IMG/VR virus record: IMGVR_UViG_3300021432_000012
Location: 1-51,034 of that record
Strand: one strand, 5' to 3'
Source of the DNA: a virus
Lineage: Duplodnaviria; Caudoviricetes
DNA length: 51,034 nucleotides
In this document: piece after piece, positions 5,191 to 16,318 of the stretch
How the letters are laid out: each line of letters starts with the position of its first letter
Numbering within the stretch: position 1 is the stretch's first letter
Notes under the pieces: model-generated
Database searches by the model: none
Told to the model about the DNA's origin: nothing
The model's input: only the letters and a program-made list of their open reading frames with translations
Made by a program: the position numbers and the translations under genes

Positions 5191-5346
5191 TCGCTAACGG
5201 ATGGTGCCGAGCGATGCAAATACAGATGGAATGTGCCTCAAAGTTTTTTGGAGGGTAGTGTAGAACGTTCCCGGGACCATCTGCCCATGCAAGGAATGTT
5301 CTGCGCCACCAAGCGCCTACCCTCCAAAGGTCTTTGAGGTTTTTTT
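5191..5346 (+). ncRNA. C4/CI-like antisense RNA or attenuator with upstream complementary targets
   Basis: Nested stems 5236-5243/5332-5339, 5248-5258/5317-5327 and 5260-5271/5293-5304, then a U-run. Loop CCATCTG (5277-5283) is complementary to CAGATGG (5223-5229). Confidence 0.6.
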
Positions 5347-5779
5347 ACGCCTAAATATTTTGAATTAACTGTGCCATGACCAAATCAGCATGGCTTAAAT
5401 GGGAACGATAGGAATCTCGGCATGCAGTAAGTGAATACTGAGTATAGAGGGCACAACCGCCGAACGGCAGTATTCGAGAGTCAAGAATGACCAGTAGGAC
5501 AAGCGTGGGGTGTAGTGGTTAGAGCGTGCTGGTGGGCCGTGAGGCTTATAGTCTGACCAAATGACGGGCAATTAGCGTAGTTACTTGGATTGAAAAATAT
5601 TCAATTTAATTGTCCGGCAGCCAACCGAGGATAACTCTAAGAGTTTGACTGGGGGTGCTGTTGACTTTGGGATTCAATCCAAGAGAAAAAATAGATTCTA
5701 ATTAGTACCTAATAGGGGTCTGTTTATAGAAAAGCAATATTGGTAATTGAGAAATATTACCTGACAAGGAATAAATAAA

Positions 5780-7312
5780 ATGCAAGAAAGCTTAGTAGCT
5801 GGTTTGGAAAGTGAAAAATCTTCTTCCAATATTGTGAATGAATTGGTTCTTCGTAATTATCAAGAAGATGCCATCATACTAATCAAGAATTCCTTGGCTA
5901 ATGGGAATAAAAGAATTGTCCTTCAAGCCGCTACCGGGTCAGGTAAGAGCGCGATTTGCGAAACAATGATCGTGGGTGCCTTGAAAAAAGGAAAGCGAGT
6001 CATGTTCCTGGTGAATCGCGTTCAACTAGCCGACCAAATGTCGACCCATTTGAGCCGCGCAAAGATTGAGCATGGGATTCTACAAGGGGCAAATACTCGT
6101 GGCACTTATCACGATTGTGTGATTGCCTCAATAGATACTATTCATAAGCGGGGATATCCTGAATGCGATCTTATTCTTTGCGATGAAGTGCACGGGGCCG
6201 CTGGGTCAGAAAAATATCACAAACTCATAGAGCATTACAAAGGAATTCCTATCATTGGAGTGACTGCCACATGCATGGCAAAGGGACTTGGTAAGCAATA
6301 TAAATTCGGTAAGTTATTTGAAGATATTGTTTGCCCAATTTCTATCCAAGAATTGATAGATCAAGGTTATCTGGTTGATGTTGATATTTACGCTCCGAGC
6401 GAGCCAGATTTAAAAAATGTAAAAATAGTAGCCGGTGACTATCACGAAAAGCAGCTTGCAGAGGCGGTCGATAAACCGACACTGATTGGGGATATAGTCG
6501 ATAACTGGATGCAAAATGCAAAAGGAAAGCAAACGATAGTCTTTGCCGTAGATATCGCACACAGTAAGCACATCGTAGAGCGTTTTAATGCCGCTGGAAT
6601 CAACGCGGAGCATATTGACTACATGATGACCTATGATGAGAAGAAAGAGATTGTAGGCAGGTTTAAAGCTTCGGAATTTACAATTTTATCGAATTGTGCA
6701 TTGCTCTCTGAGGGATTCGATGCGCCAGCTACTGAAGTCATGATTTTGGCGCGTCCGACAAAAAGTAAGATCAGATATTTGCAGATGGTAGGGCGTGTCC
6801 TGCGCCCGTTTGCTGGAAAGGATAAAGCGGTATTATTCGACCATTCCGGATCAACTGCTCAGCTAGGATTCCCGACCGATGATTTTCCGATTGTTCTTGA
6901 TGATGGGAAACCTAAAAAATCATCCGGATCGGATAAGAAAAAAGAGGAAAAGTTACCGGTTAAATGTACTAGTTGCAAATATCTCCGTAAGAACGGAGGT
7001 AAATGTCCGATATGTGGATTTGTGCCGCAAAAGAAAAATTCTGTCGTGACTGCGATAGGTAGTTTGACGAAAAAGGAAAAAACAAAAAAATCAATATACG
7101 AATCTATGAACAAGCAGCAGGTTTTTTCTGAACTACGATATATTGCTAATGAAAAAGGTTATTCTGATGGATGGGTAGCAAATCAATATAGAAGTTTTTT
7201 TTCTGTCTGGCCGCGTGGTCTTGAAAATACGATGTCGGAGCCTGGAATTCTCGTGCATAACAAAGTGAAATCTAATTTCATCAGATTCGCGAAGGGCAGA
7301 AAAAATGGCTGA
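5780..7312 (+). CDS. SF2 DEAD/DEAH-box helicase with C-terminal Zn finger
   Basis: AATGSGKS, DEVH, TAT, EGFD, QMVGRVLR motifs; CTSC/CPIC. Confidence 0.95.
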   Translation: MQESLVAGLESEKSSSNIVNELVLRNYQEDAIILIKNSLANGNKRIVLQAATGSGKSAICETMIVGALKKGKRVMFLVNRVQLADQMSTHLSRAKIEHGILQGANTRGTYHDCVIASIDTIHKRGYPECDLILCDEVHGAAGSEKYHKLIEHYKGIPIIGVTATCMAKGLGKQYKFGKLFEDIVCPISIQELIDQGYLVDVDIYAPSEPDLKNVKIVAGDYHEKQLAEAVDKPTLIGDIVDNWMQNAKGKQTIVFAVDIAHSKHIVERFNAAGINAEHIDYMMTYDEKKEIVGRFKASEFTILSNCALLSEGFDAPATEVMILARPTKSKIRYLQMVGRVLRPFAGKDKAVLFDHSGSTAQLGFPTDDFPIVLDDGKPKKSSGSDKKKEEKLPVKCTSCKYLRKNGGKCPICGFVPQKKNSVVTAIGSLTKKEKTKKSIYESMNKQQVFSELRYIANEKGYSDGWVANQYRSFFSVWPRGLENTMSEPGILVHNKVKSNFIRFAKGRKNG

Positions 7313-13559: not shown

Positions 13560-13745
13560 CTATTTTGAAATATACTTCCGGTTGAACTGCTCAAGTTTCT
13601 GATCATAATCAGCACGTTCCTTTTGATTCTCGCGCCGGTCATGTACTCGACGTTCTATGGCGTGAGGAGCATCATGTGTGCGGCGATCTTGGGGGCGTAG
13701 AGATTCTGGGACATGCGCCAATGTGTCTTTCAGCGAATCAAACAT
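13560..13745 (-). CDS. Hypothetical protein, first gene of a leftward mini-operon
   Basis: AAGGAG RBS; DRR repeats. Confidence 0.6.
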   Translation of the reverse strand: MFDSLKDTLAHVPESLRPQDRRTHDAPHAIERRVHDRRENQKERADYDQKLEQFNRKYISK

Positions 13746-13828
13746 GATGTCTCTCCTTTATCTCAAGTTTTTTCGCACGATTCTATAACTACAGTGTAGA
13801 CTCATTTTGAGTTTTTATAAGGACTATT

Positions 13829-13857
13829 TTGATGGATTCCGCTGAATAATGTATAAT
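13829..13857 (+). promoter_or_regulatory. Sigma70-type promoter upstream of the packaging region
   Basis: TTGATG-17 bp-TATAAT. Confidence 0.55.
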
Positions 13858-14072
13858 GATACTCAGATTAAATTCTTTCCAAGTTAGCTTCCTGTGAAAA
13901 CATCTCCTGACTTATCTTTATCTTCTCTTGAAGAATTGGTAACGCAATTTATAAAAGAAGGCGGAAATATGACATTTGTGCCTGAATTGGCGGTATTCTC
14001 CCTTGCGACACTTGGCATAACTATAGAATCAGCCATGCGCGCTTCCAGTTACGCTATCTTGAAGGAGATGCA

Positions 14073-14243
14073 ATGCCATTGATTAAAAGCCCGTCTAAGA
14101 AAGCCTTTTCAACTAATATCGCGACAGAGCGCGATGTTGGCAAGCCGATCAAGCAAGCCATTGCAATTGCCGAAAGCGTTAAGCGCGAATCAATCAAGGA
14201 TTCCCTGAATAAACGGCTATCCGGATTACTCGGTGGAAAGTGA
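14073..14243 (+). CDS. Small basic phage protein (MPL.K..S.K....NI..E...GKP.KQA.AIA family), C-terminus replaced by an insertion
   Basis: AAGGAG RBS. Removing 14215-15420 restores ...DSLNKHWSQGEKKKK* (3' remnant 15421-15452). Confidence 0.75.
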   Translation: MPLIKSPSKKAFSTNIATERDVGKPIKQAIAIAESVKRESIKDSLNKRLSGLLGGK

Positions 14244-14483
14244 CAAATGATGAGTAGTCTCTTCCATGTGGAAACGGGTATTGCACTCAATGCACACGAG
14301 CAGGGCGTTCTCGACCTTGGTATGGTCGCCGTCGGTAAAGGCCCGAAAGTGCGCCAGAACCTCAGCGTCAGCATCCATCTCAGCCGGCGCGAACAGTCCG
14401 TGGCAGCACGCGCAGCGGTAGAGGCTCTTGCTCTCGGCCGCGCGCTGGGCGCGCAGCTGGCGGCCGGCCGAGAGTTTAACAGC
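14226..14483 (-). other. Start-less HNH-like ORF, in frame after the PAPS-reductase UGA
   Basis: AVKLSAGRQLRAQRAAESKSLYRCACCHGLF...VLAHFRAFTDGDHTKVENALLVCIECNTRFH... (translated by hand). Confidence 0.55.
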
Positions 14484-15332
14484 TCAGTCACCGCAAAAGC
14501 ACGAGATGGCTTCTTCATTGTTGTCAAACCCATACATGTCGGATTGGTTCCTAACGAAGTCGTACATACTGCCGTAGCCAGGCCGGTCGATGCGGAACCG
14601 GCAGCCATCCCCATGAGCAACCGCTTCGGCCTGCTTCTCCTGGGTAGCCCACCAGATGCCGCGCTCGGGCTTCTCAGCAATCAGGCTGACCAGGGAAGCG
14701 CCTGTCTTCAGGAAGCACAGGTCGCAGTTGCCGTGAATCGTCTTGCCGCCGTTGTTGGGCAAAGCAAGGTCAAAGGGCTGGGCGCGCCAGAACTCCCCCA
14801 CGCCACCGGCGGTAACGAAGGCATCGGCCAGCGGGATGCGAACGAACTCGTCCGGCGTCTCGGGATGTGGGTTGAATCTGAACTTGGCGACCCGGCGCGG
14901 CTCGTCGGCCCGGATGCCAAGCATCGTTTCCCACTCCTGGATGCCCAGGGACCGAAGGTAGCGGTGAATGGTGCGGGTCTTCAGCTCGGAGGAGCAGTAC
15001 CGGGAGCGAGGATTGGGAAGCACGCCGCCCCGCTGCCGAATAACCGCTTCGAAGGGATCACCGTTCCGGCTCGCCGTTTCGAAAGTGACAACCTCGAACT
15101 GGCCTCCCTCCCGATATTCAAGCCACGTGATGTGCACGCCCCAGTGCAGCGCGATATCTCGAATGAAGCGGAGTGTCGCCTCATCCTCCTTGCCGGTGTT
15201 GCAGAAGATGAGGAATGTGTCATCAGGGACTCCACCGTTGCTCTCGATGACTCGCTTCAGCAGGTAGGCAGAAGTCCGTCCGCCGCTGACGTTGACACAA
15301 GCTGGGCTGGCAATCTTAAAAGGGTCAAACAT
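14484..15332 (-). CDS. Phage PAPS-reductase-family (PP-loop, probable Fe-S) protein
   Basis: SGGRTS, FCNTGKE, RYCSSELK, GIRADEPRR, GNCDLCFLK, CFCGD; GAGG RBS. Confidence 0.92.
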   Translation of the reverse strand: MFDPFKIASPACVNVSGGRTSAYLLKRVIESNGGVPDDTFLIFCNTGKEDEATLRFIRDIALHWGVHITWLEYREGGQFEVVTFETASRNGDPFEAVIRQRGGVLPNPRSRYCSSELKTRTIHRYLRSLGIQEWETMLGIRADEPRRVAKFRFNPHPETPDEFVRIPLADAFVTAGGVGEFWRAQPFDLALPNNGGKTIHGNCDLCFLKTGASLVSLIAEKPERGIWWATQEKQAEAVAHGDGCRFRIDRPGYGSMYDFVRNQSDMYGFDNNEEAISCFCGD

Positions 15333-15460
15333 GATGTCCTCATTTCCACCACTTAATCCGGAATTTAATTATACTGAACAACTATGTTTTCCACCACTTA
15401 TTCCGGAGTGCCGAATAAACATTGGTCACAGGGCGAAAAGAAGAAAAAATAGGATCAATC

Positions 15461-15649
15461 ATGATTGAGGCCGTGATATTACTGGAAGTAATTGCTCTAT
15501 CACTCCTAATTGGGCTAGCACTCGCAGTATTAGCTATTTACAAGCTTCTCACTTCAGATATAGACTCGCAAGAGCGCATCATCAATGACAGCCCACCGTT
15601 ATCGCGCATCGTAGTTACCGTCCATCAACAAGATTATGAGGAATCATAA
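15461..15649 (+). CDS. Small membrane protein
   Basis: AGGA RBS; one long hydrophobic segment. Confidence 0.55.
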   Translation: MIEAVILLEVIALSLLIGLALAVLAIYKLLTSDIDSQERIINDSPPLSRIVVTVHQQDYEES

Positions 15650-15787
15650 TGACTGAAGACCAAATCAAATCCCACGAAGATGACTTGCGCGCTCGGATAG
15701 AGTCGCTATTTTCTTACGTCCATCCTGATATTGGGACAAAAGGCTTGTCGCCCACTCAAGTACACCACGTAGGCGAATAGGCACAAA

Positions 15788-16318
15788 TTGAAAAATTCCT
15801 CCTTCACCAAAGACGCATCAAAACTCACTGAGAGGCAAAAACGCTTCGCGGAGGAATACCTCATTGATCTAAACGCTACGGCAGCTTACAAGCGCGCTGG
15901 ATACGCTGGAAAGGGGAATGGTGCTGAGGTCAATGCTTCCAGGCTACTAAGTAATACTAAGGTGCAACAATATGTACAATTTCGCATGGATAAGCGGTCT
16001 GAAGACTTGGGAATTGATGCGAATTATGTCCTTGCGGCTATAAAAAGCACAATGGAGAGGTGCCAGCAAGCCGAGCCAGTTATGGTTTTCAACCATGAAA
16101 CAAAGGCTATGGAGCCTTCTGGTGAGTACAAGTTCGACTCTATGGCCGTACTGAAAGGTGCCGACCTATTAGGTAAGCATCTAAAGATGTTCACTGACAA
16201 GATAGAGCATTCTGGCCCAGATGGTGGCGCGATCCAGATAGCAGCGGTTGATATGACCAAGCTTACAGAGGCCGAATTGGCTGTATTGACGAAAACTCTT
16301 GGAAAGATAGCTGAATAA
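15788..16318 (+). CDS. terS: Terminase small subunit
   Basis: LTERQKRFAEEYLIDLNATAAYKRAGY...ASRLL...LLGKHLKMFTDKIEHSGPDGGAI. Confidence 0.95.
   Translation: MKNSSFTKDASKLTERQKRFAEEYLIDLNATAAYKRAGYAGKGNGAEVNASRLLSNTKVQQYVQFRMDKRSEDLGIDANYVLAAIKSTMERCQQAEPVMVFNHETKAMEPSGEYKFDSMAVLKGADLLGKHLKMFTDKIEHSGPDGGAIQIAAVDMTKLTEAELAVLTKTLGKIAE

Follow-up and report, generated by a model that had tools for sequence, protein, structure and literature searches.

The window, by which we mean the whole stretch of DNA analysed here, comprises all 51,034 nucleotides of the virus record IMGVR_UViG_3300021432_000012 (Caudoviricetes). Within it, positions 14215 to 15412 are occupied by a compact, non-autonomous cassette which very probably derives from an insertion sequence (IS) of the ISL3 family that carried a passenger. 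The anatomy of the cassette, its kinship with ISL3 elements, the 8-bp duplications found throughout its family and the absence of a transposase are established by the observations described below. An earlier note made from the letters of the window had proposed a mobile cassette with terminal inverted repeats (TIRs) and an 8-bp target duplication that lacks a transposase, and this proposal was borne out: no match to PF01610, the DDE domain of ISL3 transposases, was found anywhere in the 51-kb record.

The 1198-bp block (14215-15412) is framed by inverted repeats and by a perfect 8-bp duplication, GAATAAAC, the left copy of which lies at 14207-14214 and the right copy at 15413-15420. The block begins with the 25-bp left TIR, GGCTATCCGGATTACTCGGTGGAAA (14215-14239), and ends with a right TIR of 25 bp (15388-15412) that is an imperfect reverse complement of the left one. 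When one flanking base is included on either side, the 26-nt arms at 14214-14239 and 15388-15413 are 77% complementary. Further inside, at 15343-15362, the right-end repeat recurs in a copy that shares 95% identity with the outer one. The 20-nt repeat core occurs three times in the window if up to three mismatches are allowed, with 0.01 occurrences expected, and not one of 100 shuffled sequences contained three. Composition also sets the block apart, the G+C content in steps of 200 nt being 0.58-0.66 in the element and 0.33-0.52 in the flanks. The features named in the earlier note (TIRs, 8-bp duplication, inner repeat, a TATAAT hexamer, the shift in G+C and an open reading frame (ORF) made whole by excision) are all present where it had placed them, and its passenger gene of foreign composition proved real as well.

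Relatives with the same ends connect the cassette with the ISL3 family. A scan of IMG/VR for the repeat core yielded 13 loci. Scans with a left-end pattern returned 11 viral loci and 28 loci in bacterial genomes, a narrower pattern built on the window's own left repeat gave 7 metagenome loci, and searching with four aligned transposases from elements of this kind contributed 24 further viral loci; individual loci are denoted by numbers such as L007. This latter locus has a left repeat identical over 25 nt to that of the window, the same doubled right end and a C-5 DNA methylase gene upstream of a transposase gene. Its 471-aa transposase matches DDE_Tnp_ISL3 (PF01610, E 7e-53) together with HTH_Tnp_ISL3 and Zn_ribbon_ISL3, and scores 268.8 bits (cut-off 180; E 7e-80) with NF033550, 'ISL3 family transposase'. 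The transposases of L084 and L091 were likewise recognized as ISL3 by Pfam or NCBIfam, and others encoded between such ends align with these. Autonomous relatives with the same ends, as envisaged in the earlier note, therefore exist in L007 and others. L004 and L015 are built like L007. In L004, L007, L015 and L117 the stop codon of the cargo gene abuts or overlaps the start of the transposase gene, which suggests that cargo and transposase form one operon read from the right end. In ISPst2, a known ISL3 element, the repeat reads GGGTATCCGGAATTTCTGGTTGAT, the duplications measure 8 bp and two passenger genes are present (PMC6305408, Table 3 and text).

The same type of element is found in cultured phages. 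In Burkholderia phage Bcep22 (NC_005262), gp32 is an ISL3 transposase with 49.5% identity over its full length to that of L007. The gp32-gp34 region, a neighbour of the small terminase gene, shows two small genes upstream of the transposase gene, a right end that is doubled, and GTTCTTCT as its duplication. In Vibrio phage K256, and in further Vibrio phage records annotated alike, a DNA methyltransferase gene is followed by a transposase gene; in K256, these are accompanied by a doubled right end with TATAAT and by the duplication GAAAAGAG. Separately, we noted two ISL3-like transposase genes in tandem (gp02 and gp04), each after a gene of the same orientation, in Pseudomonas phage vB_Pae_HB2107-3I (L149, 1-4262).

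The left part of the cassette holds what is left of a transposase of this kind. Directly after the TGA of the cargo gene and in the same frame, the minus strand encodes the last 85 codons and the stop of an ISL3 transposase (14226-14483), including a CxxC...CxxC tail. The stop codon (TAA, minus strand, 14228-14226) lies inside the left TIR. In an alignment with C-terminal tails of ISL3 transposases, 14 columns, the four cysteines among them, are invariant across four sequences. The remnant is 82.7% identical at the amino acid level to the tail of L119 and 76.5% to that of L116; compared with L119, 44 codons are identical, 26 differ only synonymously and 13 non-synonymously. Nucleotide identity with L139, which combines a full 465-aa transposase with a methyltransferase cargo, is 76.5% over 255 nt, and this similarity makes transposases of the L139 or L007 type candidate partners of the cassette. 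A structure model of the 85-residue remnant reached a predicted local distance difference test score (pLDDT) of only 62.4, too low for a fold search. Since the record has no ISL3 DDE domain and retains only these last 85 codons, we filed the element as a non-autonomous derivative and not as an IS.

The left end itself is shared with full-length elements. All 25 nt of its repeat recur unchanged in L007 and L108, while L015, L011 and L013 have GGG in place of GGC. Left ends have in common not only this repeat but also a subterminal half-repeat, GTGGAAAC, located at 14268-14275 in the window, where its bases at the same time code for the conserved R-F-H in the tail of the transposase; columns 50-59 of an alignment of 11 left ends are nearly invariant. 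The junction between cargo and remnant reads GGTGACTGA|GCTGTTAAAC. At this junction, GTGACTGA equals an overlapping transposase start as in L117, and the bases that follow resemble the LLFN codons which open the tail in L119 and L116.

Three metagenome contigs, L116 (1880-2382), L120 (10129-10613) and L119 (1-537), have left ends 83-85% identical to the first ~250 nt of the window's cassette, and in each of them the transposase gene is truncated differently. The remnants in L116 and L120 adjoin putative protocatechuate-dioxygenase-like genes. We considered whether L116 and L120 share the deletion junction of the window and rejected this, as a longer part of the transposase gene survives in both (VIRA...LFNDRK) and further indels are present; their truncations are thus separate from that of the window. 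Internal truncation seems to be frequent in this ISL3 lineage.

The extra C-terminal tail of ~85 residues is carried by the transposases of this ISL3 subgroup, with CxxC...CxxC invariant in 18 of 18 sequences (window 14226-14483 on the minus strand, L007 6593-6862, L139 4611-4895 and 15 other loci). It is absent from the transposases of L091, L113 and L114. The Pfam HNH model matched two of the nine tails tested (L007 and L004), in both cases below threshold, and a homologue in Escherichia phage Fraca is annotated as 'protein with HNH endonuclease domain'. The subgroup may combine a DDE transposase with an HNH-derived zinc domain, and this may bear on second-strand cleavage or on end binding.

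The strongest evidence against a chance arrangement is the family. With each insertion counted once, both ends were seen in 31 elements, and 24 of these, the window's included, have a perfect 8-bp duplication, each one different (window, L004, L008, L015, L083, L084, L096, L097a, L097b, L106, L113, L114, L117, L124, L128, L129, L131, L133-L137, Bcep22 and K256). Besides viral contigs and bacterial genomes, their sources are one metagenome contig and two cultured phages, Bcep22 and K256; L091, the contig of which is the element itself, stands outside the count. The duplicated octamers are A+T-rich (147 of 192 positions by hand count). Related elements have a G+C content of 0.53-0.60 in flanks of 0.49-0.65. 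Ten of the 31 lack a transposase, namely the window's cassette, L008, L083, L086, L082/L085, L094, L096, L097a, L097b and L106.

Several members of the census are unusual in other ways. A Paenibacillus xylaniclasticus contig (L097) contains two ISL3-type elements of 498 and 316 bp (5207-5704 and 5845-6160), 140 bp apart and each with a perfect 8-bp duplication, the larger of which encodes a 104-aa cysteine-rich protein. The viral contigs L132 and L133 hold the same 1864-bp element, consisting of a 153-aa cargo and a transposase, in different flanks, as judged by coordinates and 70 residues of the cargo; only one of the two copies is flanked by a duplication, GATATATC. In L007 (8822-8858), the 9-mer at the left junction, TATTTCGGC, recurs 28 nt past the right end after a hairpin-like stretch, which may reflect a rearrangement or a co-mobilized flank.

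The right end has a layout of its own. An outer 25-nt repeat, a 25-nt spacer and an inner repeat follow each other without gaps in nine of nine aligned right ends, and the doubled arrangement is present also in Bcep22 and K256. L004 and L007 have exactly the window's 20-nt right core. In the window, the -10-like hexamer TATAAT (15373-15368, minus strand) lies between the two repeats and precedes the cargo ATG (15332) by 36 nt, and a ribosome-binding site, GAGGA, is found on the same strand at 15337-15341, 4 nt upstream of this ATG. The hexamer occupies positions 15-20 of the spacer, at which L015 and L117 have TACAAT, Bcep22 has TATACT and the others have weaker versions. The position of a -35 element falls in the outer repeat and reads TGGTGG, which is poor. 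For the cargo promoter put forward in the earlier note, the hexamer is present and the -35 position is poor. We consider it probable from this arrangement of motifs that the cassette carries its own promoter at the right end. In many IS, the transposase binds the end in which its own promoter lies and thereby represses this promoter, and it is reasonable to suppose, by analogy, that the transposases of these elements would do the same. In two elements without transposase, L008 (9851-9945) and L083 (5030-5122), the cargo ORF begins in the right-end spacer and reads through the inner repeat, and the N-termini of the two cargo proteins are alike (MTEQLQKPEYRVET and M(N)TEMQKPEQRVES).

The cargo gene of the window (14484-15332, minus strand) encodes a 282-aa PP-loop protein of the phosphoadenosine phosphosulfate (PAPS) reductase family, relatives of which are called NinC-like or Nin-like in some records. 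It matched PHROG 424 (phrog_424, 'phosphoadenosine phosphosulfate reductase') with an E value of 3.9e-43, and many of its close homologues have a precomputed match to PF01507. The PP-loop, SGGRTS, spans residues 16-21, with S16, G18, R19 and S21 invariant in 35 sequences. A structure model computed from the alignment of these 35 sequences had a pLDDT of 86.7 and found its best fold match in CysH (6vpu; E 2.4e-5, template modelling scores 0.41/0.49); its similarity extends to LarE and TtuA, which are PP-loop sulfur transferases, with the PAPS reductase CysH being closest. Homologues number in the thousands, P0003 (encoded on a 58-kb contig) being 95% and P0004 89% identical. Named ones include proteins from Paraburkholderia (69%) and from a metagenome-assembled genome of the Burkholderiales ('Nin-like protein', 66%), and relatives in this order are named PAPS reductase or Nin-like; homologues from Burkholderiales fit the high G+C content of the block. 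The cargo was matched by 537 phage records, some with the annotation NinC. Among viral contigs, the cargo nearest to it has 59% identity and lacks the repeats, and the INPHARED phage collection contained no DNA match to the cassette. Within the cassette there are no genes for the partners DndA/B/D/E or SspB/C/E. Phage PAPS-reductase-like genes such as lambda ninC and the homologues of DndC/SspD belong to the same protein family as the window's cargo (phrog_424); unlike them, the latter travels inside a transposon. Phage PAPS reductases have been described as DndC/SspD homologues located in variable regions or anti-defence hotspots, and one of them is reported to help its phage evade Dnd (PMC13551039, citing its ref. 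56).

The cargo slot, located between the right end and the transposase start, could be compared in 27 phage, viral-contig or metagenome elements. Genes of DNA-modification type fill it in 14: six have PAPS-reductase-like cargo (window, L004, L135, L137, L143 and L144), seven have DNA methyltransferases (L007, L141, L086, L008, L131, L139 and K256) and one, L136, has a DpdA-like 'queuine tRNA-ribosyltransferase'. The remaining 13 carry cargo of another type or of no assigned type. The PAPS-like proteins of the window, L004 and L108 gave no pairwise BLASTP match at E <=1, so that they look like separate captures. L136 (2444-4867, a viral contig) has in its slot a DpdA-like gene (phrog_887, E 5.8e-70), which is of the 7-deazaguanine DNA-modification type, together with a 90-aa gene. 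In bacterial genome contigs, elements of the same type carry type I M and S genes, PIN and HipA toxin-antitoxin pairs, or a PadR gene with a transporter gene of the major facilitator superfamily. From its protein family and from the methylase and DpdA-like genes in the slots of sister elements, we consider that the cargo of the window probably serves in DNA modification or counter-defence.

The cassette sits in a small phage ORF, ten codons before its end and upstream of the terminase genes. In its occupied form this plus-strand ORF (14073-14243) encodes 56 aa, has AAGGAG 5 nt upstream of its ATG and ends inside the left repeat as ...DSLNKRLSGLLGGK. In silico removal of 14215-15420 lets the ORF from 14073 end in ...DSLNKHWSQGEKKKK (...DSLNK-HWSQGEKKKK-stop); this reading, made by eye, agrees with the ORF end that the earlier note had given for the excised form. 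The displaced 3' end, HWSQGEKKKK and stop, lies at 15421-15453 on the plus strand, with C15420 completing its first codon. The record represents a 51-kb phage genome of 100% estimated completeness, among the products of which are a helicase, a primase, Erf, both terminase subunits (small and large), a portal protein and an Rz-like spanin. Nearly all of its long ORFs are on the plus strand, the cargo being antisense to them, and the cassette lies between early and packaging genes, with the small terminase gene 370 bp downstream. IMG/VR classes the ends of the record (window 1-51034) as inverted terminal repeats.

Searches for an unoccupied version of this site gave the following results. The first 47 residues of the interrupted ORF retrieved, from 5.8 billion proteins, only its own disrupted 56-aa form on three contigs. 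A small-terminase scan of viral contigs for the empty site produced 62 loci, the best 45% identical, and tblastn of four flanking small ORFs against all collected loci, including these 62, gave no meaningful match. Contigs from the sequencing run that holds the stretch, which is probably its source, show only the occupied form and no empty-site joint. As contigs drop rare variants, this says nothing about the absence of an empty site.

These data are best explained by the following course of events. The ancestral element would have consisted of a right end in which a promoter was framed by two repeats for transposase binding, followed by the cargo, a transposase gene starting at the cargo stop and the left end. 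It would have entered the phage by DDE transposition at the A+T-rich target GAATAAAC, of which 8 bp were duplicated. An internal deletion of ~1.1 kb, covering transposase codons ~3 to ~380, would have spared the two ends, the cargo and the final 85 codons. Transcription of the cargo, which would stem from a high-G+C background, would start at the element's right-end promoter and run antisense to the phage genes, and without transposase this promoter would be unrepressed.

Two orders of these events have to be weighed. The transposase may have been lost before the cassette landed in the phage, in which case the cassette would have been moved in trans from one replicon to another, as envisaged in the earlier note, by the transposase of a full-length relative residing in the host or in a co-infecting phage, and to this order we give somewhat less than an even chance. 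It is favoured by the intactness of both ends, including the subterminal repeats, and by the perfect duplication. Full-length elements share the repeats (the left one in L007 and L108, the right core in L004 and L007), and there are relatives without transposase that have perfect duplications of their own, namely L008 (869 bp, with an N6/N4 methylase), L083 (406 bp), L096, L106, L097a and L097b. Moreover, mobile insertion cassettes (MICs) are a recognized class of elements in PMC6199540. However, no second copy of the cassette was present in viral contigs or among the 7 loci of the metagenome scan, and the perfect duplication does not separate the two orders. Decay in place after insertion, perhaps favoured by packaging limits, would account equally well for a transposase remnant and a deletion that starts from the cargo stop.

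Other origins are far less credible. In the earlier note, the element had been attributed to the IS1595 (ISPna2-like) or IS6 family, which was wrong. Such a derivation, to which only general features point (repeats starting with GG and an 8-bp duplication), is very improbable: every transposase between such ends that was checked by Pfam or NCBIfam, in L007, L084 and L091, is of ISL3 type, and the window's remnant aligns with an ISL3 tail. Because relatives with the same ends encode ISL3 transposases and the ISPst2 repeat is alike, we assign the element to ISL3 and not to IS1595 or IS6. Equally improbable is that the G+C-rich block arose through chimeric assembly or through uptake of a gene (a 'moron') by recombination, with the repeats being incidental, as the metagenome-assembly source and the sharp shift in composition might suggest. 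A separate assembly of one run (probably the source sample and hence not independent data) spans 13600-16000 without differences in a single contig, the exact pattern of repeat, duplication and doubled right end recurs in Bcep22, K256 and many contigs, and a chimera would not create an 8-bp duplication.

Several points weigh against a non-autonomous ISL3 derivative with a PAPS-reductase-like passenger in a phage gene. While an internal deletion appears to be the simplest reading of the junction between cargo and remnant, its endpoints were read by eye from short similarities. A perfect duplication is missing in seven of the 31 elements (L007, L086, L094, L108, L132, L139 and L082/L085, the last with a weak right end). 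A consensus promoter scan made no call at the TATAAT site between the right repeats because of the sequence at the -35 position. The cargo scored 21.5 bits with Pfam PF01507, under the cut-off of 22.5 bits, and a sequence search of the PDB with the cargo gave no match. As the interrupted ORF is without homologue, the statement that the cassette was inserted into a gene is based on an ORF with a good ribosome-binding site. Finally, neither an empty site nor a second copy of the cassette was found in viral contigs, proteins and the contigs of one sequencing run, so that the insertion event is deduced solely from the anatomy and the family pattern.

Passenger-carrying ISL3 elements, MICs and the IS in Bcep22 are already known, and the cassette of the window has traits of each. 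The ISPst2 type of passenger-carrying ISL3 element, also termed transporter IS, shares with it the common repeat type GGGTATCCGGAAT..TGGT.GA, A+T-rich 8-bp duplications and internal passengers, as far as described in PMC6305408. Full-length relatives of the window's cassette have an ISL3 transposase as the ISPst2 type does; the copy in the window differs in that it lacks a transposase, sits in a phage and carries a phage-type PAPS-reductase-like gene in place of the ArsR/permease pair listed for that type, and its nearest relatives have the extra C-terminal four-cysteine tail on their transposases. The IS in Bcep22 is like the cassette in its doubled right end with a -10-like hexamer in a 25-nt spacer, its 8-bp duplication, its cargo slot and its small-terminase neighbourhood, whereas it is autonomous and has cargo genes of unknown function. 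Its record marks only a 'putative insertion sequence boundary'. Bcep22 is listed among phages with one IS in PMC3091744; a text describing the cargo slot of this IS was not found. An article on a Serratia phage (PMC7556043) deals with an IS3 element and has no bearing on the cassette.

MICs of the MIC231 type, as well as miniature inverted-repeat transposable elements, have terminal repeats of an IS family and a target duplication but no transposase, and MICs, a class named in PMC6199540, carry a passenger as the cassette does. Such elements are presumed to be moved by a transposase supplied in trans. The cassette of the window has the make-up of a MIC, with IS-type ends, a duplication, a passenger gene and no transposase. 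MIC231 derives from IS231. The window's cassette differs from this type in that it is derived from ISL3 and keeps a remnant of the transposase gene. What appears to be new is that an ISL3 lineage recurs in phages with a fixed cargo slot in which DNA-modification genes are frequent, that it has derivatives without a transposase and that its transposases bear a four-cysteine tail. Among the titles and opening lines of abstracts listed by literature searches, no published description of phage ISL3 elements with DNA-modification cargo was found.

A wider proposal, which we put forward tentatively and think rather unlikely to hold in full, is that a phage-dwelling ISL3 lineage shuttles genes for DNA modification or counter-defence by means of a fixed slot, located between the transposase start codon and a promoter set amid two repeats that bind the transposase, and of repeated captures of different methyltransferases, PAPS-reductase-like enzymes and a DpdA-like gene, and that cassettes without transposase would be moved in trans, their cargo being expressed constitutively when no repressing transposase is present. 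Insertion sequences have been reported, in PMC3091744, to be relatively rare in wild-type phages, and the ways in which phages exchange counter-defence genes are an active question. Here, one IS lineage with one gene layout is found in viral contigs as well as in cultured phages, with roughly half of the cargo (14 of 27) being of DNA-modification type. Since the present analysis defines ends, cargo and candidate partner transposases alike, the idea is directly testable at the bench. The forms without transposase would be compact, self-expressing gene cassettes, and if the elements move between phages, they would provide, beside recombination, a transposon route for the spread of anti-restriction functions.

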